64,000 bases of DNA from Deltaproteobacteria bacterium (GTDB lineage Bacteria > Myxococcota_A > UBA9042). Numbering within the stretch: position 1 is the stretch's first letter; every line of letters begins with the position of its first letter. The stretch spans positions 21,734-85,733 of the forward strand of contig JACKFC010000015.1 of NCBI GenBank assembly GCA_020632665.1, in the 5' to 3' direction. The notes beneath the pieces were generated by a model. It was not told where the DNA came from. It saw only the letters and a program-made list of their open reading frames with translations, and searched no databases. Below are positions 7,731-23,970 of the stretch, piece by piece. The position numbers and the translations under genes are program-made.

Positions 7731-10724
7731 CTACTTGCAACAGGTCGCGTAGCCCGGACAGCAGTCGCCCGCGGTCTGGCAGTAGCCGTCGCAGTAGCAA
7801 TCCTTGGTGCTGTAGATCAGGCAGACACCCGGGATGAGCTCGATGAGGCAAGGCCCGTTGATGGTGCCGGCAGGCGAGGACGAGCCGCACTTGCCGCCGC
7901 AGACGCTGCCGGCGCAGGTGTTGCACGCGTCGCCGCCCTGGCAGTCGTCGTCCTTGTTGTTGCACTGGATCTCGGTCGCGCCAGGATGCACGGCGCTGTC
8001 GCTGTCGGCACAGTCGCCGCTGTTCTTCGCGGTATACTTGCCGGTCGGCTTGCAGAGGACCTGGCTGGAGCCGGCCACGCCCCAGCCGTCGCCGTCGTTG
8101 TCGAGGTAGTAGGTGACCTTGCCTGGCGCGCTCTCGTCGGTCTGGCCGTTGCAGTTGTCGTCCTTGTCGTTGCAGCTCTCCGCGGCTCCGGGCTTGGTGG
8201 TCGCGGCGTTGTCGTCGCAGTCTCCGGATTGGGTCGCGGTGTAGCTGCCGAGCGCCTTGCACAGGCATTGGCTGGCACCGCTCTGGCCGAAGCCGTCCTT
8301 GTCGTTGTCGATGTAGTAGTCGGTGCAGCCGGCAGCGCCTTGCTCGTCGGTGACGCCGTTGCAGTTGTCGTCCTTGTTGTTGCAGGCCTCGGTCGCGCCG
8401 AGGTGGACGCCCTTGTCGTCGTCCTTGCAGTCGCCGGGCTTGAGCGCCGAGTGCGTGCCGTCGGCGGCGCAGAGGCATTTGGTCGGCGCGTAGGCGTCGC
8501 CGTAGCCGTCTTTGTCGGCGTCGACGAAGTAGGTATTGCAGCCCGCGGCACCGACGCCGTCGGTGCTGCCGTCGCAATCGTCGTCCTTGCCGTTGCAGCT
8601 CTCCTTGCCGGCCGGCGAGACGTTGGCCAGCGCGTCGTCGCAGTCGCCGGCCTTGGTCGCGGTGTAGGGGACCTTGGCCTTGCAGAGGCAGGCGGTGTCG
8701 CTGGGCTTGCCGTAGCCGTCTTGGTCGGCGTCGCCCCAGTAGATCGTGCAGCCCACCGCGTCGACCTCGTCGGTCACGGCGTCGCAGTCGTCGTCCTTGC
8801 CGTTGCAGACCTCGCCCTGCTTCGGCGAGGCGGCGGCGTCGGCGTCGTCGCAATCGCCGGCCTGGGTGACGACGTGGGTGGCGTCGGGCTTGCAGAGGCA
8901 GAGCTCGCTGCCGGGCTTGCCGTAGCCGTCCTTGTCGCCGTCGACGTAGTGCTTGCTGCAGCCGCTGGCGTCCTGCTCGTCGGTTTGCCCGTCGCAGTCG
9001 TCGTCGATCGTATTGCAGGACTCGGCGGCCTTCGGCGAGACGTCGGCGACCTTGTCGTCACAATCACCGGCTGCCGTCGCGGAGTAGGCGCCGGTGGGGG
9101 CACAGAGGCATTGCGCCAGCGTCGCGTCGCCGTAGCCGTCCTTGTCGCCGTCGAAGTAGAGCTTGGTGCAGCCGACCGCGTCTTGTTCGTCGGTCTGCCC
9201 GTCGCATTCGTCGTCTTTGCCGTTGCAGGACTCGGTTGCCGCCGGATGCACGCTCTTGTCGCCGTCGTCGCAATCACCGGCGATGAGGACCGGGAACGCT
9301 GCCGTCGGCTTGCACAGGCATGCGTTCTTGCTGCCGTCGCCGGCGCCGTCGAGATCGACGTCGGCGTAGGCGGTTTGGCAGCCCAGGGCGTCCTGTTCGT
9401 CGGTCTGGCCGTCGCAGTCGTCGTCCTTGCCGTTGCAGACCTCGGTCGCCGAGGGCGCGATCGAAAGGTCGAGCGGGGCGCAGTCCGCGGCGTCGAGCGC
9501 GCCGTCGTTGTCGTCGTCGGGGTCGACGCAATCGGCGAGGCCGTCGCTGTCGGTATCGGTGAAGCCCTCGTCGGTCTGGCCGTCGCAGTCGTCGTCCTGG
9601 CCGTTGCAGGCCTCGGCGGCCGGGGTCGCCGCCGAGCAGAGCAGCACGGCGCCGTCGCAGCTCGTGGTGCCGGGGCAGCTGCCGAAGGTATTGCTCTGCT
9701 GGCACGGCTGGCCGCTCAACGCCTCGTCGGTCTGGCCGTCGCAATCGTCGTCCTGGCCGTTGCAGAGCTCGGCGGCGGGGGCCTTCGCGTCGCAGCCCGC
9801 ACTGAGACCGTCGCAGGTCGTCGCGCCGGTGCAGGCGCCGAATTCGTTGCTCTGCTGGCAGGGCTGGCCGCTGAGGCCCTCGTCGGTCTGGCCGTCGCAG
9901 TCGTCGTCTTGGTCGTTGCAGACCTCCGCGATCGGGGTCATCGCGTTGCAGCCGGTCAGGCCGTCGATCGCGCACTTCCGCTGGCCGAGGCAGGTGCCGG
10001 CGTCGTTGCTGACGCTGCAGGTGGTGCTGTCGCCCGCGGCGATCGCGGCGGGGGAGCAGGTGCAGTCGGCGTCCTTGCGCACGCATTGCTTCGCCGCGCC
10101 TTGTTGCCCCTGCGCCAGCTCGCAGGCGTAGCCGCTGGGACAGTCCGCGCTCTCGATGCAGCCGGCGCCGCAGAAGCCGCCGCCCGCGCCGGTCTGCACG
10201 CAGAGGGCGTCTTTGGCCAGGTCGTCGCAGAAGGCGTCGGTCTCGCAGGGGCGGCAGAGCGCTTTGAGCTTGGAGACGCAGATGAAGACGGTGTCGCTGC
10301 CGGGGGCGGACTCGCAGGTCCAGCCGGTGGGGCAGCACTCGATGCAGGTCCGCGAGCAGCGCTTGCCGTCGGGGCTGTCGACGCACCAACTCGAGTCGCA
10401 GTCCGAAGCCTGCTCGCACGCCGCGCCGGGCTCGCCGGGGGCCGGATTGGCGGGGAAATCGCAGCCGTTGCCGGACTCGCCGGTGTCGACGTCGGGGCTG
10501 CCGTCGACCGCCGTCGCCGCGTCGACCGGGCCGGCGCCGGCGTCGCTGGTCGGTTTCGCGTCGTCGCTGCCGAAGCCGACGTCGAAGCCGAAGAGCACGT
10601 CGGAGCCGCCGCCCGCTTGGCCTGCGCCCTGGGTCGCGGTCGGGCCGGAGTCGCTGCAGCCGACGATCGCGACGGCGAGGAGGAGCGAGGCCACGACGCT
10701 GCGGCAAGGAAGAGATGCGGTCAC
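7731..10724 (-). CDS. Secreted lipoprotein with ~11 MopE-type putative metal-binding Cys repeats, plus EGF-like and thrombospondin-type-3-like segments
   Basis: GTG at 10724 with GGAGG 6 nt upstream. Lipobox LLLAVAIVGC. The motif GDCDD..(P)..E.CNG.DDDCDGQTDE is repeated about 11 times. One DTDSDGLADCVDPDDDNDG Ca-binding-like stretch is present. The C-terminus is Cys-rich. Confidence 0.85.
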   Translation of the reverse strand: MTASLPCRSVVASLLLAVAIVGCSDSGPTATQGAGQAGGGSDVLFGFDVGFGSDDAKPTSDAGAGPVDAATAVDGSPDVDTGESGNGCDFPANPAPGEPGAACEQASDCDSSWCVDSPDGKRCSRTCIECCPTGWTCESAPGSDTVFICVSKLKALCRPCETDAFCDDLAKDALCVQTGAGGGFCGAGCIESADCPSGYACELAQGQQGAAKQCVRKDADCTCSPAAIAAGDSTTCSVSNDAGTCLGQRKCAIDGLTGCNAMTPIAEVCNDQDDDCDGQTDEGLSGQPCQQSNEFGACTGATTCDGLSAGCDAKAPAAELCNGQDDDCDGQTDEALSGQPCQQSNTFGSCPGTTSCDGAVLLCSAATPAAEACNGQDDDCDGQTDEGFTDTDSDGLADCVDPDDDNDGALDAADCAPLDLSIAPSATEVCNGKDDDCDGQTDEQDALGCQTAYADVDLDGAGDGSKNACLCKPTAAFPVLIAGDCDDGDKSVHPAATESCNGKDDECDGQTDEQDAVGCTKLYFDGDKDGYGDATLAQCLCAPTGAYSATAAGDCDDKVADVSPKAAESCNTIDDDCDGQTDEQDASGCSKHYVDGDKDGYGKPGSELCLCKPDATHVVTQAGDCDDADAAASPKQGEVCNGKDDDCDAVTDEVDAVGCTIYWGDADQDGYGKPSDTACLCKAKVPYTATKAGDCDDALANVSPAGKESCNGKDDDCDGSTDGVGAAGCNTYFVDADKDGYGDAYAPTKCLCAADGTHSALKPGDCKDDDKGVHLGATEACNNKDDNCNGVTDEQGAAGCTDYYIDNDKDGFGQSGASQCLCKALGSYTATQSGDCDDNAATTKPGAAESCNDKDDNCNGQTDESAPGKVTYYLDNDGDGWGVAGSSQVLCKPTGKYTAKNSGDCADSDSAVHPGATEIQCNNKDDDCQGGDACNTCAGSVCGGKCGSSSPAGTINGPCLIELIPGVCLIYSTKDCYCDGYCQTAGDCCPGYATCCK
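7920..9930 (-). repeat. Tandem coding repeats (~190-bp period) encoding the MopE-like modules
   Basis: The CNGxDDDCDGxTDE codon blocks recur through this span of the lipoprotein gene. Confidence 0.8.
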
Positions 10725-10846
10725 GTGGGCCTCCGCGGCAGCCCGAAACGACGGGCTCCGTCGCCTGCCATCATGGCAAGACCGCAGCGAAGATCCAGAC
10801 AATCACGGCGTCGAAGGGTCGGTCGGCCCCGCCGCGGCAGCGGAAA

Positions 10847-13902: not shown

Positions 13903-13973
13903 GCCTGCGCGCCGCCGCACCGCCGCCGCGCCGCCGCGCCACGCTCGATCACGCTTTGGGCAAAAACGCCGAA

Positions 13974-14007
13974 GGCGCCAACCCCGCGAGGAGATTGGCG
14001 CCTTCTT
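13974..14007 (+). terminator. Hairpin plus T-rich tail downstream of the kinase gene, abutting attL
   Basis: GGCGCCAA (13974-13981) pairs with TTGGCGCC (13995-14002), followed by TTCTT. In the uninterrupted locus it would sit back-to-back with the tRNA-Asp 3' end. Confidence 0.4.
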
Positions 14008-14031
14008 GGCGGAGTGGACGGGACTTGAACC
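14006..14031. repeat. attL core: orphan copy of the tRNA-Asp 3' end
   Basis: TTGGCGGAGTGGACGGGACTTGAACC is identical to 29685-29710. The sequences diverge immediately beyond it. Confidence 0.85.
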
Positions 14032-14138
14032 GCCACACCCGCCAGCGCGGCAGTTGGCGCAAGAGACGAGCATGATCCGCCGCCCCATCTCCAACGCCCC
14101 GCACTTCGACCAGAGCTTCCTGTTCTGGTGGAGGCCGG

Positions 14139-14474
14139 ATGCGGCTCCTTCACATCGTCATCGCCGAGGCCGAGAACGCGCCTTGTCCCGCTGATCCCCT
14201 GGCGGCCGTCGCCGAGGCCGTGCTCGAACTGGTCGACACCGCGAGGGGCGACGAGCAAAGCTTCGCAGCGGCAACGCTGCTCATGCAGCTCCCTGCGGCG
14301 CGTGCCCGCCTTGACGCGATGTGGCAAGACCACGACCGGCGCCGGAAGGTCTGCATCGGCGCTTATCAGCTGATCGTCGCTGCCGACCAGCTCCGCCTCG
14401 CGCATCGACTACCGCCGCGCCAGGCAGCCATGATGGAGGCGCTCCGCGCCGCGGCCGAGCGGGCAGATGGCTAG
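14139..14474 (+). CDS. Hypothetical protein (111 aa)
   Basis: GGAGG 6 nt upstream of the ATG and high GC3. No motif recognised. Confidence 0.55.
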   Translation: MRLLHIVIAEAENAPCPADPLAAVAEAVLELVDTARGDEQSFAAATLLMQLPAARARLDAMWQDHDRRRKVCIGAYQLIVAADQLRLAHRLPPRQAAMMEALRAAAERADG

Positions 14475-14499
14475 CCCGGCCGCCCACGAGCGAAGGGGC

Positions 14500-14935
14500 G
14501 AGCCGCATCCGCCGCATCGGCGATGCGTCCGACCTGCATCCGTCGGATGCAGGCGACATGCTTGCAGTTGCGCATTCACGCATCGCCGGATGCGCGCACC
14601 AGGCACGCATCGAGACGCATCCGCGGGTCGCATTCGCCTGCATGTCACGCCGCATCCGGACGCATTCTGCGCATCGCGGATCGGCCGAAGACGTGATCAC
14701 GGGCGATCGCGCCCGAAATCAGTCCCGCTCGGCCCGCATACCGTCCGCATCAGCCATGCATCCCGGCGATGCGCGGAGGATGCTCGCGGTTGCGCATTCA
14801 CGCATCACCGAATGCACGCAACAAGCCCGCATCGAGACGCATCCGCGGGTCGCATTCGGAGGCTTCGAATGTCGCATCGGTCCGCATCAGCGACGCATCG
14901 ACGGTCTCAAGTTTTTTGCTCTTTCGTTTCAATGG
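14500..14935. promoter_or_regulatory. Iteron array plus AT-rich patch (candidate replication origin or regulatory array)
   Basis: 17 exact CGCATC/GATGCG hexamers and at least 9 one-mismatch variants in about 400 bp. Two 70-bp imperfect direct repeats (14567-14636 and 14789-14858). Palindromes CTGCATCCGTCGGATGCAG and CGCATCGCCGGATGCG. An AT-rich stretch at 14907-14933 lies just upstream of a wHTH gene. Confidence 0.5.
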
Positions 14936-15011
14936 GTCATGCGACGGGAGTGCGACGGCCGCATTTTCCGCAGTTGCGCCCATGCGAGCGACTGGGGCAG
15001 GCCAAGACGAG

Positions 15012-15815
15012 ATGAGCGCGACCTTCCACCAAATGATGCCGATCGACTCGTTCTTCGACCAGATGGTCGAGAACGGGTCGAGCCGCACCCGCGGAATGCT
15101 CTGGATGGTCTTCAGCATCATCAAGAACGACGCTCACCAGAAGACCGGCAACGCCGGCGTCCGCTCTGCCCGCTGGCTGGCGGGTCGCGCCGGTATCCAT
15201 GTCAGCACGTTCTGGCGTGCGGTCGCCAAGCTGACGGAGGCTGGCTGGCTGCGCCGCGAGCCGACCTGGAGCTGCGTCGACTACGGGATGCGCGGCCCGA
15301 ATCGATGGTGGGTGCCGGCAATGGAGGCCGGCCGTCCCGTGGAGCTGTTCGGGGAGGTAGCTGAGTCGACGCCGGCTGCCGAGCCTCCCGCTGCACCGGT
15401 GGCAGGTCCTGCCGGACCGCGAGCCGTGGATGCGTTCTTCCGCGACCCTCTGGCCAGCTTCGACGCTCAGGCTCCGGCGACGAGACGGACCCAGGAGTTG
15501 CCGAGTCGCGCTGAGCTGTCACTCCTGGGTACCTATCGCAGTGGCGAGTCGGTCGAGAAGTACGAGCGCAACCGCTGGGACCGCATCCTCGGCACCAGCA
15601 AGATCGACCCCGCGGACCGCAAGTCGCTTCGGAGCGCAACGGTCCTGCGCCAAGTTGGCCGCTCCGCCCGTTCCGACGGCCTGACCGAGTACGTGGTCGA
15701 GGTCCCAGAGAACCTGGTCCCCGTCGCTGAGCGCTGTTGGAGTTCAGTGCTCGAGCACGCGCGAGAGAGCAGCATCGCGCTAGTTCTCTATCGCGCCCAG
15801 CCGCCACCCGGCTAG
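15012..15815 (+). CDS. Winged-helix DNA-binding protein (candidate replication initiator or regulator)
   Basis: ARWLAGRAGIHVSTFWRAVAKLTEAGWLRRE is an HTH/wHTH motif. GC3 jumps from about 60% to about 88% at the ATG at 15012, so the track start at 14769 is rejected. Confidence 0.65.
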   Translation: MSATFHQMMPIDSFFDQMVENGSSRTRGMLWMVFSIIKNDAHQKTGNAGVRSARWLAGRAGIHVSTFWRAVAKLTEAGWLRREPTWSCVDYGMRGPNRWWVPAMEAGRPVELFGEVAESTPAAEPPAAPVAGPAGPRAVDAFFRDPLASFDAQAPATRRTQELPSRAELSLLGTYRSGESVEKYERNRWDRILGTSKIDPADRKSLRSATVLRQVGRSARSDGLTEYVVEVPENLVPVAERCWSSVLEHARESSIALVLYRAQPPPG

Positions 15816-16238
15816 CACCAATCCTTCCCAGCACGACAATCGCGAGGGCCACCGGCTCATGGGCCGGTGTGTCCTCTGTTCGCATTTTTGGGCCGAGAAC
15901 GGCTTCGCGCTGGCGCGACGGTCCCTCTGCCGTCGGCGCTGGCTGTGCTCGAGCCGTCGCAGTCGGCCGGGACCGACGCGTTCTGCAGAATCCTCAATTA
16001 TTTCCGGTGTCGCGTATCAAGCACCACGTTGTCGCTGATCAGCATCGACACCTGTCGCAAGTGCGCACCGGCGGGTGCCGCGCAGCAGCGAGACATGATC
16101 AGAGTGTTTTCAAAGTCTTCTACAGATGAATTTCAGAACCGCCCGCTCCGCGGTCGCGCCCTCCGGGCGGGTGAAACACTGGCAATGGGTGACTGCACGG
16201 CTGGCTTGCGGGACGATCGCGATCGCGAGGAGGCGCGG

Positions 16239-17222
16239 ATGTCCAAGTGCAAGGAGTGCGGCCACGAGGCTCGGTCGACGCAAGCGCTCGCAGCTCACGT
16301 CCGGTGGCACTGCCCGGCGAGGAAGGAGCGGCCGGTCGAGCCCGTCGACGAGTACCCGACATTCGTCGCGCCGGTGGAGAAGCCGGCGGCCGGCAGCTCT
16401 GCGACGATGCCGGCGGCGATAGGGGCGCCTCTGGCCGCTGCTCCGGATGCCACCGCGAAGACTCGACCGCCCGAGACGCAACCATCCGAGCCGAACCGCC
16501 CCGAGCCGGAACCGGTGCCGCGGCCACGCCGACTCGGATGGTCGGTCGGAGAGCCAGTCCGGACGCAGAAGCCCCCGGCCGCGCCCGAGACACCGAGCTA
16601 CCTGCAGAGGATGCCCCCGCCACCGGCAACCGGGCTCGCTCCGGCGGCGCCGCGCCGCCTCGAGGACGAGCTCGCTGGCGGCGCCTCCCAAGCCTCACCC
16701 CCGGCCAGTCCGCCGGCGCAAGCCGGACCGTCCGCAGCCGCCTCCGCGGCCGAGACGGCGCCGAACGGAGAGAGCGCGCCGCAGCCCTCGAGCGCGCCAG
16801 GAGCTGCGCCGGCGCAGTCGGCCGTCGCTGCGGCCAAGCTCATCGAGCTCGTGCTCAACAAGATCTTCCCAGAGTCCAAGTTGAGTGCCGACGAGAGCAA
16901 GATTCTTCGCGACGCACTGCCTGACCTGCTGCCGAAGCGAGGCGCAGTGATCATGGTGCTATTCGCGCTGATCGTGCCGCGTGTGGTGATGAAGCCAGCG
17001 GTTCTCGCCAAACTCTCGCGAGTCGCCGATAGGCTTGGTGGCGACGACAAGCCGGCGGCCGTCGAGTCGCCGCATGCGGCCGCCGAACCTGCCGCTGCGC
17101 CTGCGCCGTCGGCTACGCCCGAGTCCACGCCTGCGCCTGCGCCGTCGGCCACGCCGGATCCGGCGCCCCGACGGTCACCTCCGACCGAAGCAGAGATCGC
17201 TCGCTCGTGGGGCGAGGCATGA
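16239..17222 (+). CDS. Zinc-ribbon, Pro/Ala-rich protein with one transmembrane helix
   Basis: GAGGAGG upstream of the ATG at 16239. MSKCKECGHE...HVRWHC. TM helix GAVIMVLFALIVPRVVM. Its stop overlaps the ATPase start as ATGA. Confidence 0.6.
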   Translation: MSKCKECGHEARSTQALAAHVRWHCPARKERPVEPVDEYPTFVAPVEKPAAGSSATMPAAIGAPLAAAPDATAKTRPPETQPSEPNRPEPEPVPRPRRLGWSVGEPVRTQKPPAAPETPSYLQRMPPPPATGLAPAAPRRLEDELAGGASQASPPASPPAQAGPSAAASAAETAPNGESAPQPSSAPGAAPAQSAVAAAKLIELVLNKIFPESKLSADESKILRDALPDLLPKRGAVIMVLFALIVPRVVMKPAVLAKLSRVADRLGGDDKPAAVESPHAAAEPAAAPAPSATPESTPAPAPSATPDPAPRRSPPTEAEIARSWGEA

Positions 17223-17827
17223 GCAACTCGCCCTTCGAGCTCGTGCCATTCGGGACCGTGGCCCACGGCTCGTTGCGAGAGCACGAGCTGCACCTGGTGG
17301 TTGGGATGCCCGGCCACGGCAAGACGGTCTACATGCTCAACTTCATGGCGGAGTGGAGAGCGCGCAATCTCGGCAAGAGCCTCGCGGTCGACCTCGAGGC
17401 GCGCGAGCCGATCGGCGACGGCTACCTCGCGCGCTGGGCCGACGTGTGGTGCCGGGAGCCTCCTGAGGAGCTGCCCGACTGGGTGCGACTGATGGTGTGC
17501 GACGAGGCGCACGAGTACGTCGGCACCCAGGCGGTGAAGTATCCAGGCATGGAAAGCCTGGCGTCGTCGCACCGGCACAAGCCGGTGATGCTCCTATGGG
17601 GGACCCAACGCCCGAACCAGATCAAGCGCGACGTCTGGGCCAAGGCCAAGCGGGTCGTCATCTTCCGCGTCATCGACTCCAGCGACCACAGGCGCCTCCT
17701 CGAACTGCCCGGGCTCGAGCGCAAGCACATCGACGTCATCAGCCGACTCCCGCCGGGCTTTGCGGCGGTCTGGGACCTGCACGAGACCGGCATTTGGCTG
17801 CCATGGGTACCGCAATGGGAGTCGTGA
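17219..17827 (+). CDS. Zot-like P-loop NTPase (candidate virion assembly/packaging ATPase)
   Basis: Walker A GMPGHGKT, Walker B LMVCDEAH, then SSHRHKPVMLLWGTQRPNQIKRDV, which resembles the HRH...TQ motif of Zot/pI ATPases. No TM segment. An alternative GTG start exists at 17207. Confidence 0.8.
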   Translation: MSNSPFELVPFGTVAHGSLREHELHLVVGMPGHGKTVYMLNFMAEWRARNLGKSLAVDLEAREPIGDGYLARWADVWCREPPEELPDWVRLMVCDEAHEYVGTQAVKYPGMESLASSHRHKPVMLLWGTQRPNQIKRDVWAKAKRVVIFRVIDSSDHRRLLELPGLERKHIDVISRLPPGFAAVWDLHETGIWLPWVPQWES

Positions 17828-18054
17828 TTGACTGGCTCGAGCTAGGGGGCGCCTGCAAGCGCATCCGCAAGGAGCGCGGCTGGTCTGCCGACCTGCTCGC
17901 GGCGAAAGCGGGCTGCCATAGGACCACGGTCTACCGCCTCGAGCGTTGCGAGCCAGTCAGCATGGCGTCGCTCCAGCTCGTCTTCGTCGCGCTCGGCATC
18001 GAACTGCGGGTCGACGCGCGAATGTCGGTTTTGAGCGACGTCGCTCCAAACTGA
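17815..18054 (+). CDS. XRE-family HTH protein (79 aa)
   Basis: IRKERGWSADLLAAKAGCHRTTVYRLERCEP...LQLVFVALGIEL. It overlaps the ATPase gene end by 13 nt. Confidence 0.65.
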   Translation: MGVVIDWLELGGACKRIRKERGWSADLLAAKAGCHRTTVYRLERCEPVSMASLQLVFVALGIELRVDARMSVLSDVAPN

Positions 18055-18119
18055 CTTCCAGAGCCGGATCGGCCTCTCCAGCATGAACCCCTGCGGCGCG
18101 ACCGCCAGAGGAGAGCGAC

Positions 18120-19241
18120 ATGTTCGAGAAGCAGATCATGAAGGCCGAGCAGGCGGGCAACTCCGCGATCTACGTCCGGCCGCCCCCGCGCCTGTATGGC
18201 CATCGCGCCGACCGCCTCTGCGTCGAGCTCCGGCTGACGTTCAACAACGGCACTGGTGCTCTTGCCGACCTGACCGAGGCGTTCTTCACCGGCAGCAAGC
18301 TGAAGTGGAACTACCGCGACAATTCGCCCTTCATCGTCGACACGCCGCTGGCGCCCGCCGAGTGGGCCAACCAGATCATGCAGCGACGCTGGGCCGGCGG
18401 GCTGGTGCAGTGCGACGGCGGCATCCAGGTGGCCATCGGCGCCACCGAGACCCACAGCTTCTACCTCGACATCGACCTGGCGATCCCGCTCGCCGAGCGT
18501 CCGGTCGACTTCTCGCAGGACATCTCGGAGCTGGGTGCGCTCACCTTCACGCCCGACATGTCGAACGAGGCCGCGTCGCTCTCGCTCACCAACGTCGAGG
18601 TCATCGTCACGGCGTACGGCAAGCGCACGGACGCCCTGTACAGCGGCTCGCGCCTGCGGATCAGCACGCAGAACAGCCTCGCGCCGATCAGCAGCGACGA
18701 GCTGGCCCTCGAGGGCAAGCTCATCGCGCTCTTCATCTTCACCAAGGACGGGACGGTGCCCATCGCGTCGACCGTGCCGCAGGTCAAGGTCGGCAACCAG
18801 CAGCTGCTCGAGACCGTCGATACCAATACCCTCGACGTCGTCAAGCACCTCGGTGCGTCGCGCTGGACTCTCTTCCCCCAGCGTCCGAGCGACGGCGCCC
18901 CGAGCGCCGACTTCCCCGACGACATCGGCCACCTGGTGATGCCGGAGGAGGGCTTCCGGATCAGTGCGCTGCCGGGCAACAAGGGCGACGTCGTCAACGT
19001 CTCCTACGCCACCGCGCCTTCCGCCAGCACCGGCAAGCACGTCTATGTGCTGGTCGAGCTCGTCCCGCGCCAGACCTGCTTCAAGCGCGAGATCCCGGGC
19101 GCGGTGGAGATGAAGCGCGAGGACTTCGAGCGCTACGTCGAGTACCCGACCATCGGGGCCGGGATCCTCACCGACGAGCTGAAGGACGTCCTGCCGCAGG
19201 TCATCCGGACGCCGCAGGTGCTCCAGCGCATCGGCTGCTGA
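18120..19241 (+). CDS. Hypothetical protein, 373 aa (candidate major capsid protein, unverified)
   Basis: GAGGAG upstream and high GC3. No TM segment. Many short hydrophobic-alternating (beta-like) segments. It is the largest soluble protein of the structural block. Confidence 0.7.
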   Translation: MFEKQIMKAEQAGNSAIYVRPPPRLYGHRADRLCVELRLTFNNGTGALADLTEAFFTGSKLKWNYRDNSPFIVDTPLAPAEWANQIMQRRWAGGLVQCDGGIQVAIGATETHSFYLDIDLAIPLAERPVDFSQDISELGALTFTPDMSNEAASLSLTNVEVIVTAYGKRTDALYSGSRLRISTQNSLAPISSDELALEGKLIALFIFTKDGTVPIASTVPQVKVGNQQLLETVDTNTLDVVKHLGASRWTLFPQRPSDGAPSADFPDDIGHLVMPEEGFRISALPGNKGDVVNVSYATAPSASTGKHVYVLVELVPRQTCFKREIPGAVEMKREDFERYVEYPTIGAGILTDELKDVLPQVIRTPQVLQRIGC

Positions 19242-19265
19242 TCAGTACGCAGGGAGGATGAAGCC

Positions 19266-20159
19266 TTGGGCACCCCGTCCGCCAACCAGGTCCTCGAGAT
19301 CCTGACCTCGACGTTCGGCAGCGGTCCGGCGCAGTGCGTCTGGGACCAGGTCAACACTGTGACGCTGGTCCCGGCGCTCATTGCGGCCGTGCCCACTGGC
19401 GGCGCCAGCCTGGTCGGCTACCTCGGCCCGATCGTCACGAGCTGCGGCGTCGGCTCGGTCGAGGAGCTGGCCATGGCGATCGCGAATGCGTTCGTCACTG
19501 GCGGCGGCTCCGGCGAGAAGGCCGAGACAGGTGGCGCAAAGGAGTGCTACTGGACCAAGCCGGGCAAGGACGGCCTGGACGAGTATTGGGACCCGGTCTG
19601 TATCCAACTGACCAAGGCCGGGTGGCGACAAAAGAGCATCGGCGGCTGGGGCAGCAAGACCGTGGTCGACTATGTCACGCCCGCCGGTTGGCAGGTCCAG
19701 TTCCTCTGGGACATGAAGTTGGGGAGCAAGGGCAACGGCCAGACTGGCGTCTTCTACGTCAACAATCCCGACCTGGTCGTCACCGCCGGCGCCGCAGGCC
19801 TGCCGACACAGAGCAATCCGGGGACAGCCCGCTTCGAGAAAGGTGGGGTTGCCAAGGCCATCGAGGTCTTCGGCTCCGCTCCGACGCCCGAGGCGGTGCT
19901 CGCGAAGTACAGCAACAAGAAGCTGCCCCCGGGCGTCCGCAAGATCTGGCCCACCGGGGCCTGTCTCAACACAGCCAACCAGCGCGTCGACTGCCAGACC
20001 GGCGCCATCTTGAGCCCGACGGTCCTCATCCCGCCGACCAAGACCGACGGCGACGACCATGACGACGAAGGTGGCATCCAGGCGTGGCATATCGGCGCCG
20101 TGGTCGCGGTGCTCGCCATCCTCGCCGCACTGGCCTGGTGGCTCTGGGGCGACGCATGA
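19266..20159 (+). CDS. Hypothetical protein with a C-terminal TM anchor (297 aa)
   Basis: TTG start with GGGAGG 8 nt upstream. C-terminal IGAVVAVLAILAALAWWLW. Confidence 0.65.
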   Translation: MGTPSANQVLEILTSTFGSGPAQCVWDQVNTVTLVPALIAAVPTGGASLVGYLGPIVTSCGVGSVEELAMAIANAFVTGGGSGEKAETGGAKECYWTKPGKDGLDEYWDPVCIQLTKAGWRQKSIGGWGSKTVVDYVTPAGWQVQFLWDMKLGSKGNGQTGVFYVNNPDLVVTAGAAGLPTQSNPGTARFEKGGVAKAIEVFGSAPTPEAVLAKYSNKKLPPGVRKIWPTGACLNTANQRVDCQTGAILSPTVLIPPTKTDGDDHDDEGGIQAWHIGAVVAVLAILAALAWWLWGDA

Positions 20160-20710
20160 GCGACAACCCCACCACCTTGCACAACGCTCGTTCGCTCGAG
20201 GTCAAGTACGGCTTCGGCGAGGTCAAGTCCGGCGCCGAGGCCGCGGACTTCAAGTCCGCCATGCGTGAGGCCGGCCTCGAGGACGGGTCGGCCTGCGTGC
20301 TCACCGCCTGGGCGGGCGGCGCTCCGGCCGACAAGAGCTGGATCAACCCCTCTGGCTGGTTCGACAAGCGCGAGACCGCCGAGGACGCCTGCGGGCGCGA
20401 CTTCCCCGACGTCCCCGACGTCGAGGACGCCCTCGAGGAGCTGCGGAGCGCCAGCCCGGCGCTCGCTCAGCTGGTCGAGGTCAAGGCCGGACGGAAGCAG
20501 CGCAGCGAGTACCGCTCGCTGGTCGAAAACGCCAATCAGGACGCAGTGAAGCTCGGCAAGGACGCCATCGTGAAGGTGAAGGAGGTGCTCAAGGACACCG
20601 CCGACACCGCGGGCGACGTCCTCGATGCCGCGCTGCCGTGGAAGCTGGTGATCGCGATCGTCGTGGTCCTGATCGCCATTGGAGCCGTCTGGGTGCTCGC
20701 GAAGAAGTAG
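20156..20710 (+). CDS. Hypothetical protein with a C-terminal TM anchor (184 aa)
   Basis: ATGA overlap with the preceding gene. C-terminal LVIAIVVVLIAIGAVWVLA. Confidence 0.65.
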   Translation: MSDNPTTLHNARSLEVKYGFGEVKSGAEAADFKSAMREAGLEDGSACVLTAWAGGAPADKSWINPSGWFDKRETAEDACGRDFPDVPDVEDALEELRSASPALAQLVEVKAGRKQRSEYRSLVENANQDAVKLGKDAIVKVKEVLKDTADTAGDVLDAALPWKLVIAIVVVLIAIGAVWVLAKK

Positions 20711-20727
20711 CCCAGCAGGAGTGCGTG

Positions 20728-20922
20728 ATGAAGCAGTGGTTTCAAAGCATCGATTGGGTTGCGCTGGGCATCACCGGCGTCGTGGCGGTGGTCGCCGCCG
20801 TGGCCTATGCCTTCATCGTCGACGACGCCGACATGCTGACCGCGATCATCATCGGTCTGCTCGCAGGCGTCGGCACGCCGCTGGCCTACCACACCGCCGA
20901 CCGGGCGATCAGCTTCGCCTAG
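20728..20922 (+). CDS. Small two-TM membrane protein (64 aa)
   Basis: AGGAG upstream of the ATG at 20728. Two hydrophobic helices. Confidence 0.55.
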   Translation: MKQWFQSIDWVALGITGVVAVVAAVAYAFIVDDADMLTAIIIGLLAGVGTPLAYHTADRAISFA

Positions 20923-20925
20923 TCG

Positions 20926-21297
20926 ATGCGCACTTGGCCCGCCGACGCTTGCCCTCCGGTCGCCGCGCGCTACGGCACCTGGCGCCTCGCCGCGAATGGC
21001 TCGAGCTCGACCCCGGTCGAGATCAGTCACAATCGCTGGCGGCTCTCGGTGCAATACGCTTCGACGGTCAGCGCCGGCGACGTCACCGCGTTCACCGGCG
21101 TCGCGCCGGGCGACGGCGGCGGCGGGATGGTGCGGGCCAAGGCCGGCGCGGTCGCGTACGCAGCGGACGGCGGCCAGCTCGAAGGCCAATGGGCGCCGGG
21201 GGTCGAGCGTGAGTTTTCGATCTCGCTTGCAGGCTATGCCGGCGCCGGCGACGTGACCGTGCAGCTCGAGACGTGGAGCGACCTGCCATGGCGCTGA
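20926..21297 (+). CDS. Hypothetical protein (123 aa)
   Basis: Starts 4 nt after the previous stop, with high GC3. No motif recognised. Confidence 0.55.
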   Translation: MRTWPADACPPVAARYGTWRLAANGSSSTPVEISHNRWRLSVQYASTVSAGDVTAFTGVAPGDGGGGMVRAKAGAVAYAADGGQLEGQWAPGVEREFSISLAGYAGAGDVTVQLETWSDLPWR

Positions 21298-21596
21298 GCC
21301 CCCAAACCAGGCGCAAGCTCGTCGACTACGGCGCAGCGCTCGGCCTGCTCGGCTTCGGCGCGCTCGGGGCACACGGCGTGCAGTGGCAGGTCGGCGTCGC
21401 GGAGGCGCGGACGGCGGACCACGCGGCGGACGCGGTACGCCGAGCGATGGCGGACGCGGTGCATGCCGAGATGGCGCCGCTGCAGTTCACCGTCGGGCGG
21501 CTGGTCCGCGTGACCGAGGACCTGGCGTTTCGGGTCGGCCGCAACGAGGGCGCCATCGCGGGTCTGCCGTCGCCGGCGACGCGGAGCGCGCCATGA
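21288..21596 (+). CDS. Hypothetical membrane protein (102 aa)
   Basis: Overlaps the previous gene end. TM helix LVDYGAALGLLGFGALGAHGV. Confidence 0.55.
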   Translation: MALSPQTRRKLVDYGAALGLLGFGALGAHGVQWQVGVAEARTADHAADAVRRAMADAVHAEMAPLQFTVGRLVRVTEDLAFRVGRNEGAIAGLPSPATRSAP

Positions 21597-21952
21597 TGCC
21601 GACCGCCAACCCATGGCCGATCGACGACGCGCGCCACAACGTGTGGCAGCTCTGCCGTGAGCTCGCCAACCTCGAGGGCCACCTCGACGACCCCGGCCGC
21701 AACTGCGTCAAGTGCATCACCAAGCACCTCGCTTGCATCGAGGGCCTGGCGCAAGAGGGCATCGGCCTGGACCACAGCGCCGCGCTGCAGCCGCTGTTCC
21801 GGCAGGTCATCGACGCCGTCGCTTCGGCTGGCTGGGCGCCAGGTGTCCCCCCGGAGGCGGCGCGCGAGCTGATCCGCCAGGCGCGACGTGCGTGTTGCAC
21901 AGCGCAGCTCCGCAACGCCGGCGCTCCCAACATCCTCCCGAGGAGATCCTGA
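21593..21952 (+). CDS. Hypothetical protein (119 aa, Cys-containing)
   Basis: ATGA overlap upstream and TGATG overlap with the muramidase gene downstream. Confidence 0.55.
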   Translation: MMPTANPWPIDDARHNVWQLCRELANLEGHLDDPGRNCVKCITKHLACIEGLAQEGIGLDHSAALQPLFRQVIDAVASAGWAPGVPPEAARELIRQARRACCTAQLRNAGAPNILPRRS

Positions 21953-22803
21953 TGAGCAAGCAACCCGTCGCCGGCTCACTGCTGGGCATCGACGTCTCGC
22001 ATTGGCAAGGCAAGATCGACTGGAACGCCGTCGCCGGCAGCTCCACCCCCTGGGGCGCCGTCGAATTTGCCTACGCCAAGGCGAGCACCGGCAAGGGCGG
22101 TCGCGACAAGCGCTTCGTCGAGAACGCGGTTGCCGCGGCGAAGGCCGGCCTGCCGTTCGGCGCCTACCACTGGCTCAAGCCGGGGCAGTATCTGCCCACC
22201 GAAGAGGCCGCCAACTTCGTCGCAGCGATCCAAGCCGCCCGCGCCGCCGGCGCCAAGGTCGAGCTCGCGCCGATGATCGACCTCGAGGACAAACCGGCGT
22301 CGACGATGGGCAACGATCCGCAGGCCGTCGTCGACTACGCCGACGAATTCGCCAAGGCGGTCAAGGCGGCACTCGGCCAGACGCCGATCTTGTACGTCGG
22401 CAGCAACTACGCGAAGCAGTACATGGGCACCAAGGTGCCGCCGGGCCTGCCGATCTGGGTGCCGCAGTACAACAAGCCGAGCTGCAACTACGATCCCACG
22501 GTCGCGGGCCCGAACAAGCTCAACGCCGCCACCGCGAACTGGGCGGTCTGGCAGTACTGCTCGAAGGGCAAGATCCCGGGCATCAGCGGCGACGTCGACC
22601 TGAACGCGCTGCGCAGCGACCGCATCGACGCCGTCGGCCTCAAGGGTCGACGCGTCGCCCTGCCGTCGACGACCCGCGGCGGCGCAGGCGCAGACGACAA
22701 GAAGAAGGCAGACGACGCCGGCGGCAGCACCACGCTCTACGCCGTCGGGGGCGCGCTGCTGCTGCTGATCATCATCATCATCCTCGCGCTGCAGGCGGGG
22801 TAG
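21952..22803 (+). CDS. GH25 muramidase (lysozyme) with a C-terminal transmembrane anchor
   Basis: GIDVSHWQGKIDWNAV, FAYAKASTGKGG..D..F, GAYHW, DLED. AGGAG upstream. C-terminal LYAVGGALLLLIIIIILALQAG. Confidence 0.9.
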   Translation: MSKQPVAGSLLGIDVSHWQGKIDWNAVAGSSTPWGAVEFAYAKASTGKGGRDKRFVENAVAAAKAGLPFGAYHWLKPGQYLPTEEAANFVAAIQAARAAGAKVELAPMIDLEDKPASTMGNDPQAVVDYADEFAKAVKAALGQTPILYVGSNYAKQYMGTKVPPGLPIWVPQYNKPSCNYDPTVAGPNKLNAATANWAVWQYCSKGKIPGISGDVDLNALRSDRIDAVGLKGRRVALPSTTRGGAGADDKKKADDAGGSTTLYAVGGALLLLIIIIILALQAG

Positions 22804-22812
22804 GAGGTTCCC

Positions 22813-22959
22813 ATGTCCGGCAAGTACTTCGACAAGAAGACCAAGCGCTGGCGCGACCGCGACACCAAGGCCTTCGTCAAGGCACCGCGCGACGGCAAGC
22901 CCACGCCGAGCCGCAGCAGCGGCAAGGGCGGCAAGGGCGGCAAGAAGGGCAAGAAATGA
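22813..22959 (+). CDS. Small Lys/Gly-rich basic protein (48 aa), below the ORF-track size cutoff
   Basis: TAGGAGG 5 nt upstream of the ATG at 22813. MSGKYFDKKTKRWRDRDTKAFVKAPRDGKPTPSRSSGKGGKGGKKGKK. Its stop overlaps the next start as ATGA. Confidence 0.5.
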   Translation: MSGKYFDKKTKRWRDRDTKAFVKAPRDGKPTPSRSSGKGGKGGKKGKK

Positions 22960-23234
22960 GCCAGGCCTCGCTCCCGATCCCGACCCGCGGCAACGTCCAG
23001 GACGCCGTCGACCAGGCCCGCTTCTGGCTCCGTACGGCGATCAAGGAAGGAAGCGGCTACGCCTTTCCTCTGGCCGTCGGCGGTACCGTCATCGCGGCGC
23101 TGCTCGTCGCCTGGGTCGCCGGCGTCCTGCTCGACGGCCTCTGGGCTGCGCTGGTCGCCGCTGCGCTCGCCGCGCTCTTCGCTCCGGCGCTCTTCAACTC
23201 CCTGCTGACGAGCTTGCTCGCCTCGATGAAGTGA
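22956..23234 (+). CDS. Membrane protein (92 aa, holin-like topology)
   Basis: Hydrophobic segments VGGTVIAALLVAWVAGVLL and AALVAAALAALFAPALF. Confidence 0.55.
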   Translation: MSQASLPIPTRGNVQDAVDQARFWLRTAIKEGSGYAFPLAVGGTVIAALLVAWVAGVLLDGLWAALVAAALAALFAPALFNSLLTSLLASMK

Positions 23235-23241
23235 GGCTCCG

Positions 23242-23592
23242 ATGCTCGAGTTGCTAGCCTGGCTGCTGGCCCACGGGTCGGACATCGGCAAGGCACTTCT
23301 TGCGCTGGCCCTGATCTTCACCCAGCTCGTCGGTGTCGCGAGCGTCGTGGTTCGATGGACCCCGACGCCGACCGACGACAAGTGGTTGGCACCGGTGATG
23401 CGGGTCGCCGAGTGGGTCAGCCTGGCGCTCAAGCGGCCCGCAGTCGTCGGCAAGGGCACCAAGACCGACCAGCTCGACGTGCTGGTGGACGCCCTGCAGC
23501 GCGGCGACACCGGCGAGCTGCAGGCCATCGTCGAAGCCGTGCAGAGCTACAAGCCTCCTGCGCCCCCCCACGACACCCTCCCCGAGCACTGA
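23242..23592 (+). CDS. Membrane protein (116 aa)
   Basis: N-terminal hydrophobic helices and high GC3. Confidence 0.55.
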   Translation: MLELLAWLLAHGSDIGKALLALALIFTQLVGVASVVVRWTPTPTDDKWLAPVMRVAEWVSLALKRPAVVGKGTKTDQLDVLVDALQRGDTGELQAIVEAVQSYKPPAPPHDTLPEH

Positions 23593-23696
23593 TGGACCCG
23601 CGCCTCGAGCTCGCCGTCGTGCTGCTCGTGGCGCTCGGTGTCGGCGCCGGCGCTGGCTTCGCGGCCGTCGTCGGCGAGCTGCTGGGCTGGTGGTGA
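23592..23696 (+). CDS. Very small TM peptide (34 aa)
   Basis: TGATG coupling to the previous gene. MDPRLELAVVLLVALGVGAGAGFAAVVGELLGWW. Confidence 0.4.
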   Translation: MDPRLELAVVLLVALGVGAGAGFAAVVGELLGWW

Positions 23697-23718
23697 GCGC
23701 CTGCAGGAGGCCCGGGCC

Positions 23719-23970
23719 GTGAGCGTTTTCTGGACAGAGAGGGCTGGCAAGCAACTCGCGGCTATTCAGCGCAGTGACGCGAAGCTCGCGGGCCAAGTGA
23801 AGCTCGCCGTCGAGAAGCTCCACGATACTGGACACGGCGACGTGAAGATGCTCAAGGGGGCGCCCGGCGAGTTTCGCGTGCGGGTCCGGAAGTATCGGAT
23901 CAAGGGGTACTGGGACGGCGACGTGCTCGTGGTCCTCGAGGTCGGCCACCGGAGCTCGATCTACCGCTAG
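23719..23970 (+). CDS. RelE/ParE-family toxin
   Basis: GTG at 23719 with GGAGG 8 nt upstream. The pattern ...KLHDTGHGDVKMLKGAPGEFRVRVRKYRIKGYWDGDVLVVLEVGHRSSIY fits the RelE/ParE fold signature. Confidence 0.75.
   Translation: MSVFWTERAGKQLAAIQRSDAKLAGQVKLAVEKLHDTGHGDVKMLKGAPGEFRVRVRKYRIKGYWDGDVLVVLEVGHRSSIYR

Follow-up and report, generated by a model that had tools for sequence, protein, structure and literature searches.

A probable temperate provirus of a tail-less virus, with a predicted double jelly-roll capsid protein, at a tRNA-Asp gene of a Myxococcota-like host

The window analysed here is a 64-kb stretch of contig JACKFC010000015.1, from a metagenome-assembled genome (MAG) labelled 'Deltaproteobacteria bacterium' (GCA_020632665.1), and it carries an element of 15,679 bp lying between two 26-nt direct repeats (14006-14031 and 29685-29710). 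Within this element, we analyzed a block of genes on the forward strand that an earlier note on the same DNA had read, at 17219-23696, as the structural and lysis genes of a tail-less, membrane-containing temperate virus of about 15 kb from a myxobacterium. Since the window has a G+C content of about 70%, genes were called by G+C at third codon positions (GC3), and the length of the open reading frames (ORFs) was not used; by this measure the ORFs of the block are coding (GC3 0.85-0.95). All ORFs that the note had listed are present where it placed them. It had omitted two, at 17815-18054 and 21593-21952, as well as the true start of the conserved block, which begins at 16239 with the gene directly upstream of the ATPase gene, an arrangement also seen in the relatives described below.

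The gene at 18120-19241 is annotated at NCBI as encoding a hypothetical protein (H6747_08935, MCB9739382) and had been proposed to encode a soluble, beta-rich protein of 373 aa, to be examined by structure prediction and fold search. A first AlphaFold2 model, built from a 4-sequence alignment, was discarded (predicted local distance difference test score, pLDDT, 47). The model obtained from an alignment of 24 sequences reached a pLDDT of 87.5 and a predicted template-modelling score (pTM) of 0.87, and it shows two successive beta-barrels with a helix inserted in each; both this model and a hydrophobicity scan agree with the proposed description. Foldseek returned 105 matches in the PDB with an expectation value (E) of 1e-3 or better. 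The top 50 comprise 49 entries for double jelly-roll capsid proteins plus the vaccinia D13 scaffold, a protein of the same fold. The best match was PRD1 P3 (E 4.8e-11, template-modelling score (TM-score) 0.54, about 385 aligned columns), with further matches to PR772 (E 1.9e-10), STIV (1.3e-9) and PBCV-1 Vp54 (1.8e-8), and weaker ones to PM2 P2 (E 2.9e-7, query TM-score (TMq) 0.41) and FLiP (E 1.9e-6). When predicted viral structures were searched, the best matches were capsid proteins of tectiviruses, namely Gluconobacter phage GC1 (E 1.7e-11) and Bacillus phage Wip1.

At the sequence level, the capsid protein had no match in the PDB, either as a protein or as a profile, and none in 50,697 phage genomes (tblastn); none of the 24 family members matched Pfam or PHROG, and the hhalign comparison of the family with PRD1 P3 gave a probability of 2. 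Relatives are few: there are only three among 5.8 billion clustered proteins, and a profile search run exhaustively over 1.84 billion representatives yielded 23, of 354-416 aa. Pattern scans for relatives of the capsid protein or of the ATPase found none in GTDB genomes and a single 1.5-kb contig in JGI metagenomes. Judged by its predicted structure, the 373-aa protein is a capsid protein with the PRD1/adenovirus-type double jelly-roll fold. Consequently, the virus would be tail-less and would probably contain a membrane.

Two genes upstream, a 202-aa P-loop ATPase is encoded at 17219-17827, as had been noted, and in it we read Walker A (GMPGHGKT), Walker B (LMVCDEAH) and TQRP motifs. The ATPase matches phrog_2666 (E 2.5e-11), a family labelled 'terminase large subunit'. 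Because the ATPases of SH1, PH1, HHIV-2 and P23-77 bear the same label in their RefSeq records, we take phrog_2666 to be the ATPase family of tail-less membrane viruses. A three-sequence ATPase profile searched against the PDB matched HerA (1e-7), the Zot-like N-domain 2r2a (2e-4), STIV B204 (1e-3) and FtsK (2.6e-3), and hhalign aligned the ATPase with PRD1 P9 (E 1.4e-4) over Walker A, Walker B and (T/S)QRP. With tblastn, the matches were limited to packaging ATPases (SH1, PH1, HHIV-2, P23-77, phiKo, pGIL01, Jorvik) or Zot; the secondary matches were phrog_197, 'Zot-like toxin' (E 9e-6), and inovirus Zot genes (E 0.1). The C-terminal half of pI/Zot proteins is membrane-spanning. The ATPase, unlike these, has no hydrophobic segment in a Kyte-Doolittle scan (19-residue window, threshold 1.6, as for all hydrophobic segments reported here), and at about 200 aa it has the size of B204 and P9. 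Given the matches to HerA, FtsK, B204 and P9 and the lack of such a segment, the comparison with FtsK-HerA and Zot/pI proteins that the earlier note had called for places the protein with the former, and its sequence marks it as an FtsK/HerA-type ATPase, the kind that packages DNA in double jelly-roll viruses.

The search with the ATPase also led to longer contigs that carry the same module: L003 (9.9 kb, GCA_012970195.1), L012 (11.0 kb, GCA_050655955.1), L013 (11.0 kb) and L015 (9.5 kb). In all of them the genes lie on a single strand, in the order of a polymerase, a 147-159-aa protein, an Ala/Pro-rich protein with a transmembrane (TM) helix, the ATPase, a small gene (in some) and the capsid protein; the capsid gene is followed by genes for a 210-312-aa protein, a C-terminally anchored protein of about 190-265 aa, a 59-74-aa protein, a soluble protein of 116-135 aa and membrane-anchored cell-wall enzymes. 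Homology with the window is clear for the ATPase (E 1e-23 to 1e-30) and the capsid protein (E 1e-11 to 1e-14). A closer relative, L001, has the ATPase, a helix-turn-helix (HTH) gene and the capsid gene in the order of the window, so that the module is syntenic in L001, L003, L012, L013 and L015. Because this gene order recurs on independent metagenomic contigs, the block is not a chance assembly of genes. Relative to L001, nonsynonymous and synonymous divergence (dN/dS) was 0.094/0.602 (about 0.16) for the ATPase gene and 0.068/0.667 (about 0.10) for the HTH gene; these low ratios indicate that the module is under purifying selection.

The polymerases of the relatives (L003 839-2449, L012 2056-3498, L013 1924-3399, L015 831-2213) have 460-536 aa, match PHROG DNA polymerase families (E 2e-8 to 3e-7) and the phi29 polymerase (E 0.009), and contain a YxDTD motif; on this sequence evidence they would be miniature polymerases of the protein-primed type, as in tectivirus-like viruses. 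They are unusually small for family B polymerases and barely register in Pfam (DNA_pol_B_2, E 0.02). We found no inverted terminal repeats in L003, L012 and L013, contigs which may be incomplete, and the linear form of these genomes is therefore deduced from the polymerase only. When all proteins of the relatives were compared with the whole 64-kb window by tblastn, they matched only the ATPase and the genes at 20156-20710 and 20926-21297. The polymerases had no match, and no polymerase turned up when the ORFs of the element were scanned against Pfam, PHROG and NCBIfam.

Next to the capsid and the ATPase, the evidence that bears on the nature of the element comes from its ends. The two 26-nt repeats are identical, and the right copy forms the 3' end of a tRNA-Asp(GTC) gene. 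An empty tRNA-Asp site was found in L018, a Logan contig from run ERR14790958, where a kinase gene is followed directly by tRNA-Asp; the relatives found through SurE, L008 and L009, stop short of the tRNA locus, and the empty site was taken from L018. The host genes of L018 are those of the window flanks (APRT, SurE, Ser/Thr kinase, tRNA-Asp, tRNA-Val, MoeA), and after removal of 14032-29710 the window and L018 align end to end with 94.8% identity over 9.2 kb. Thus, the element is inserted mobile DNA of 15,679 bp that one strain carries and a close relative lacks, and the empty site in a 95%-identical strain means that its insertion or loss was recent. The exact attB was read from L018 4044-4300 against window 13940-14031 joined to 29711-29870, which is the unoccupied tRNA-Asp/tRNA-Val locus.

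The element owes its place at the 3' end of tRNA-Asp to its tyrosine integrase, whose gene crosses attR, so that the prophage form of the protein has 405 aa (ending ...RDLNPRPPA) versus 414 aa (ending ...RDLNRHTRQRGSWRKRRA) in the reconstructed circular form; the attP junction predicted for the excised form reads ...GGAAAACACCCT + TTGGCGGAGTGGACGGGACTTGAACC + GCCACACCCGCCAGC.... The integrase and excisionase genes, the att repeats and the unoccupied site of the related strain identify a tRNA-integrating element and support the proposed temperate lifestyle, and the size of the element agrees with the expected 15 kb. None of the phage integrases in the searched collection is closely similar to that of the element.

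The flanking host genes say something about the organism. Its SurE protein shares 88% identity with a protein from a 'Pseudomonadota bacterium' MAG and 67% with one from an 'uncultured Myxococcales' MAG, the latter being the nearest named relative by this gene. The host, an uncultured organism, is thus probably affiliated with Myxococcota; a myxobacterial host is likewise probable, but a protein identity of 67% does not establish it. The host flank also encodes a secreted protein of 1023 aa (7731-10802, minus strand), in which a Cys-rich, 'putative metal-binding' repeat of the MopE type occurs ten times (PF11617, E 9e-70).

The remaining genes of the block, listed with all other features in Table 1, include many small membrane proteins. 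Eight proteins of the module have hydrophobic segments, the muramidase included, which resembles the profile of PRD1. The earlier note had listed at least seven proteins with TM helices as their main feature, and hydrophobic segments were confirmed for six of the seven it named (starting at 19266, 20156, 20728, 22956, 23242 and 23592); the protein at 21288 is only weakly hydrophobic, with a score of 1.22. The first protein of the block, at 16239-17222, aligns with the pre-ATPase proteins of the relatives in hhalign (probability 72.5, E 3.3e-5), and in the window (MSKCKECGHEARSTQALAAHVRWHC) as in L015 2980-3774 (CEHCGRRFKNPGGLGAHKRFC) a Cys/His motif precedes a long Ala/Pro-rich linker and a TM helix. 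From its place in the gene order, which is that of PRD1 P10, it is a candidate assembly or membrane factor. For a factor of either sort, the combination of a zinc-finger-like motif, an Ala/Pro linker and a TM helix is unusual. The XRE-type HTH gene, which may encode a repressor or a late regulator, overlaps the stop codon of the ATPase gene and has the same position in L001 (831-1070).

Downstream of the capsid gene, the protein at 19266-20159 has counterparts of 210-312 aa at the same position in the relatives. A hydrophobic segment is found in three of the four and is C-terminal in L003 only; the 312-aa counterpart in L015 has none, and the hhalign match across the family is weak (E 0.0025). 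The protein at 20156-20710 is better conserved (phmmer E 2e-9 against L015_7174-7755; hhalign probability 85.6, E 5.6e-6 against A5). The counterparts of the 64-aa protein at 20728-20922 have 59-74 aa and the same position, and a hydrophobic segment was found in two of the three scanned (L003 and L012), with none at threshold in the 74-aa protein of L015. The protein at 20926-21297 matches L015_8021-8371 (phmmer E 1.4e-11), which in turn links to homologues in L003 and L012, defining a conserved soluble family of 116-135 aa. It is a candidate single jelly-roll penton, although the family alignment with the relatives alone gave no penton signal. The muramidase is membrane-anchored, as had been noticed, by a segment at residues 262-280, and the tiny polybasic peptide pointed out alongside it, with 18 Lys/Arg among 48 residues, is a candidate DNA-condensing protein.

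Table 1. Features of the element, with coordinates in the window and the evidence for each.
Coordinates	Strand	Feature	Evidence
14006..14031		attL, displaced copy of the tRNA-Asp 3' end, TTGGCGGAGTGGACGGGACTTGAACC	sequence read directly; comparison with L018
14139..14474	+	111-aa ORF	GC3 0.80; no family match
14500..14900		CGCATC(G/C) motif cluster with 141-nt direct repeat, upstream of the winged-HTH gene	16 of 77 motif matches in 64 kb
15012..15815	+	winged-HTH protein, 267 aa	phrog_8102 'replication initiation protein' E 0.0055; MarR-type winged HTH E 0.02
16239..17222	+	327 aa, N-terminal Cys/His zinc-finger-like motif, Ala/Pro-rich linker, one TM helix	hhalign; TM scan
17219..17827	+	FtsK/HerA-superfamily putative genome-packaging ATPase, 202 aa	phrog_2666; profile against PDB; hhalign with P9; motifs
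17815..18054	+	XRE-type HTH protein, 79 aa, between ATPase and capsid genes	Pfam HTH_3 E 9e-7
18120..19241	+	predicted double jelly-roll capsid protein, 373 aa, soluble, beta-rich	AlphaFold2 model; Foldseek
19266..20159	+	297 aa, C-terminal TM anchor, candidate virion membrane or vertex protein	TM 276-294
20156..20710	+	184 aa, C-terminal TM anchor, family-conserved	TM 164-182
20728..20922	+	small membrane protein, 64 aa	TM 13-31; weak holin PHROG match E 0.006
20926..21297	+	soluble protein, 123 aa, family-conserved, candidate penton	phmmer; no TM segment
21288..21596	+	102 aa, weakly hydrophobic N-terminus	Kyte-Doolittle 1.22; no Pfam/PHROG match
21593..21952	+	119 aa, Cys-containing ORF	GC3 frame signal; no Pfam/PHROG match
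21952..22803	+	glycoside hydrolase family 25 (GH25) muramidase, 283 aa, C-terminal TM anchor	Pfam Glyco_hydro_25 E 5e-34; phrog_291 endolysin E 1e-40
22813..22959	+	polybasic peptide, 48 aa, 18 Lys/Arg	composition; GC3 0.94
22956..23234	+	membrane protein, 92 aa	TM 41-59
23242..23592	+	membrane protein, 116 aa	TM 19-37; phrog_9685 (function unknown) E 1.2e-4
23592..23696	+	hydrophobic ORF, 34 aa, uncertain gene	TM-like segment 9-27
23719..23970	+	ParE/RelE-family toxin gene	Pfam ParE_toxin E 7.7e-6
24361..25565	+	two ORFs, 263 and 138 aa	no Pfam, PHROG, NCBIfam or PADLOC assignment
25669..25953		105-nt tandem repeat, 2.5 copies, CGCATC-rich, beside the excisionase gene	Tandem Repeats Finder score 407; 11 motif matches
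26111..26521	-	excisionase-family DNA-binding protein	TIGR01764 'excise' E 1.6e-10, above cut-off; Pfam HTH_17 E 1.5e-12
26650..28470	+	three ORFs, 93, 301 and 192 aa	GC3 0.78-0.88; no family match
28510..29727	+	tyrosine integrase, ORF crosses attR into tRNA-Asp	Pfam Phage_integrase E 1.2e-11
29685..29762	-	attR core 29685-29710 within intact tRNA-Asp(GTC) gene 29686-29762	ARAGORN; sequence; empty-site comparison

Outside the block, two non-coding arrays of the motif CGCATC(G/C), one of them with a 141-nt repeat pair (14525-14665 and 14747-14887), together hold 27 of the 77 motif matches in the 64-kb window, and they may be iterons or operators. The winged-HTH protein encoded beside the first array is, on weak sequence matches, a candidate replication initiator or regulator. 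No rolling-circle Rep family was found in the Pfam, PHROG and NCBIfam scans, and NCBIfam and PADLOC scans of the accessory ORFs returned nothing. The ParE/RelE toxin gene has no recognisable antitoxin gene upstream, and a convergent ORF for a 56-aa basic protein (23971-24141, minus strand) abuts its stop codon.

Among known systems, the element is most like the Tectiviridae (PRD1, GC1, Bam35/Wip1), whose capsid proteins are its best structural matches and whose genomes are also of about 15 kb. The order of ATPase, small gene, capsid gene and a run of TM-protein genes parallels P9-P20-P3-P22... of PRD1, and the C-terminal hydrophobic segment of the muramidase has its like in the PRD1 peptidoglycan hydrolase P7 when the same scan is applied. 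In contrast to the Tectiviridae, the element has no protein-primed family B polymerase, terminal protein or inverted terminal repeats; it is bounded by direct att repeats and has a tyrosine integrase, an excisionase and integration into a tRNA gene instead, and no sequence similarity could be detected between its capsid protein and either P3 or the capsid families of PHROG and Pfam. Because the polymerase, the terminal protein, the inverted terminal repeats and a sequence-related capsid protein are all absent, we place the element outside the Tectiviridae, as a virus with a predicted tectivirus-type virion. Its relatives L003, L012, L013 and L015 share the capsid, ATPase, pre-ATPase TM, C-anchored (about 190 aa) and soluble (about 120 aa) families in the same order and on the same strand, and their cell-wall enzymes are membrane-anchored as well; unlike the element, they carry a family B polymerase and the conserved 147-159-aa protein, have no integrase, and encode different lysins.

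Precedents for a double jelly-roll provirus that carries a tyrosine integrase exist in the PM2, STIV and Odin groups (Yutin et al. 2018, PMC5894146). The element shares with the PM2-like (Corticoviridae) and STIV-group proviruses a double jelly-roll capsid protein together with an FtsK/HerA ATPase, a size in the range of 10-15 kb and integration by a tyrosine recombinase (PMC5894146), and its ATPase profile matches B204 of the STIV group. It differs from both in its tectivirus-like gene order, and from the Corticoviridae in the size of its capsid protein (373 aa compared with about 270 aa for P2), in the weaker structural match to P2 and in the lack of a Rep match. That survey, the main one of such viruses, names Myxococcota and Deltaproteobacteria nowhere in its text or supplements (PMC5894146), and our search for literature on double jelly-roll viruses or tectiviruses tied to myxobacteria found nothing relevant; in neither source did we find a double jelly-roll virus associated with either group.

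Myxophage Mx8 has tRNA-Asp as its target. As in the element, the attachment site of Mx8 lies inside the 3' end of the integrase gene, and integration alters the C-terminus of the integrase (PMC6070905); unlike the element, Mx8 is a P22-like tailed temperate phage. Since the integrase of the element is not close to phage integrases, we do not claim homology with that of Mx8. The described myxophages belong to tailed groups only (2018 review, PMC6070905), which bears out what the earlier note had said of them.

These observations support the reading of the earlier note, and we consider it likely that a temperate provirus of 15.7 kb uses the block for morphogenesis and lysis and belongs to a tail-less icosahedral virus with double-stranded DNA, of the PRD1-adenovirus (double jelly-roll, Bamfordvirae/Tectiliviricetes-type) kind. 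In our model, the virion would contain a lipid vesicle bearing 6-8 small membrane proteins encoded by the virus, and trimers of the capsid protein would enclose this vesicle in a pseudo-hexagonal shell. The fivefold vertices would be occupied by the conserved 123-aa protein, and the ATPase would pump the genome in through a special vertex, with the polybasic peptide aiding DNA condensation. The membrane-anchored GH25 muramidase may ride in the virion membrane and breach the peptidoglycan at entry, as PRD1 P7 does, and/or act at lysis. The morphogenesis module would be common to the uncultivated relatives of about 10-11 kb, which would replicate by a miniature protein-primed polymerase, while here the replication module would have been replaced by the integrase, the excisionase, the winged-HTH protein and the iteron-like arrays. 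With this replacement, a circular excised genome is expected.

Several points weigh against this interpretation. The capsid assignment is a predicted structure from a 24-sequence alignment with moderate TM-scores (about 0.54), and the protein has no sequence-level similarity to any known capsid protein in the PDB, phage genomes, Pfam, PHROGs or P3. The penton candidate matches neither PRD1 P31 nor any PDB sequence, and scanning the ORFs of the element against Pfam, PHROG and NCBIfam identified no replication protein with confidence. Pattern scans of the IMG/VR viral collection returned no relatives. Finally, the production of particles and their internal membrane are deduced from the genes of an uncultured MAG, and the element is known in its integrated form only.

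The last of these points, together with the lack of a confidently identified replication gene, the orphan ParE toxin and about 5 kb of accessory ORFs without known function, would also fit a cryptic or domesticated provirus of the double jelly-roll kind, which would be non-infectious and kept for the toxin or other cargo. We hold this to be unlikely, though it deserves to be kept in view. The ORFs of the conserved module are all intact, the integrase and excisionase are full length, and the att repeats are identical over 26 nt; moreover, the empty site in the 95%-identical strain points to a recent insertion or loss, and dN/dS against L001 indicates purifying selection on the genes for the ATPase and the HTH protein.

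The small size of the element and its integration at a tRNA gene could likewise suggest a satellite or an integrative island that lacks its own capsid and lives at the expense of a helper phage. Such a reading is very improbable, as the element encodes its own predicted capsid protein, packaging ATPase, membrane proteins and lysin, and the same module occurs in stand-alone, polymerase-encoding contigs of about 10-11 kb. Similarly, a virus of the P23-77/sphaerolipovirus type, with a shell of two single jelly-roll proteins, would account for the presence of SH1, PH1, HHIV-2 and P23-77 among the best labelled matches of the ATPase. Here, however, one 373-aa protein holds both predicted jelly rolls and aligns with double jelly-roll capsid proteins over about 385 columns, and the layout has no adjacent pair of capsid genes for proteins of about 170-300 aa, which makes this type of virus highly implausible.

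A very divergent filamentous (Inoviridae-like) phage, in which a Zot/pI-type ATPase drives extrusion and the small TM proteins form the coat, had been named as an alternative, and the many small TM proteins and the matches of the ATPase to phrog_197, inovirus Zot and PDB 2r2a speak for it. Non-lytic filamentous phages need no muramidase. The element encodes one, its ATPase has the TQRP motif, no hydrophobic segment and a better score against HerA, and a double jelly-roll capsid gene adjoins the ATPase gene; the predicted capsid fold effectively refutes this alternative, to which we give almost no credence. We accordingly rejected membership in the Inoviridae, as the membrane-spanning domain of pI/Zot is absent from the ATPase and the double jelly-roll capsid gene lies beside it. 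A tailed phage was rejected as well: in agreement with the earlier note, no ORF of the element matched a portal, HK97 capsid, protease, tail or tape-measure family in the Pfam, PHROG and NCBIfam scans, the sole terminase label fell on the ATPase (phrog_2666), and none of the genes by which Caudoviricetes are recognised (HK97 capsid, portal, large terminase, tail genes) appeared in the Pfam and PHROG scans.

Returning to the temperate double jelly-roll provirus, we regard the element as belonging to a kind of virus already known, of which it represents a new lineage and a variant with swapped modules; it is not a new kind of system. More tentatively, it may be an active temperate virus, the integrase-bearing branch of an unrecognised double jelly-roll family and the first non-tailed virus tied to a Myxococcota-like host, in which one module packages either protein-primed linear or excised circular genomes; this goes further than we would assert, but if true, a replicon switch would have been caught within a single virus family. 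The capsid family is hidden from Pfam, from PHROGs and from sequence searches of phage genomes, and its NCBI label is hypothetical protein; the double jelly-roll virus kingdom is therefore undercounted, and the 24-member seed alignment is a means to find more members of the family. The mapped tRNA-Asp attachment site and the integrase could serve as genetic tools in related bacteria. The occurrence of polymerase-type and integrase-type genomes around one module would offer a clean case for studying replication-module swaps, and the same pairing lets one ask how a single packaging ATPase handles different genome forms.

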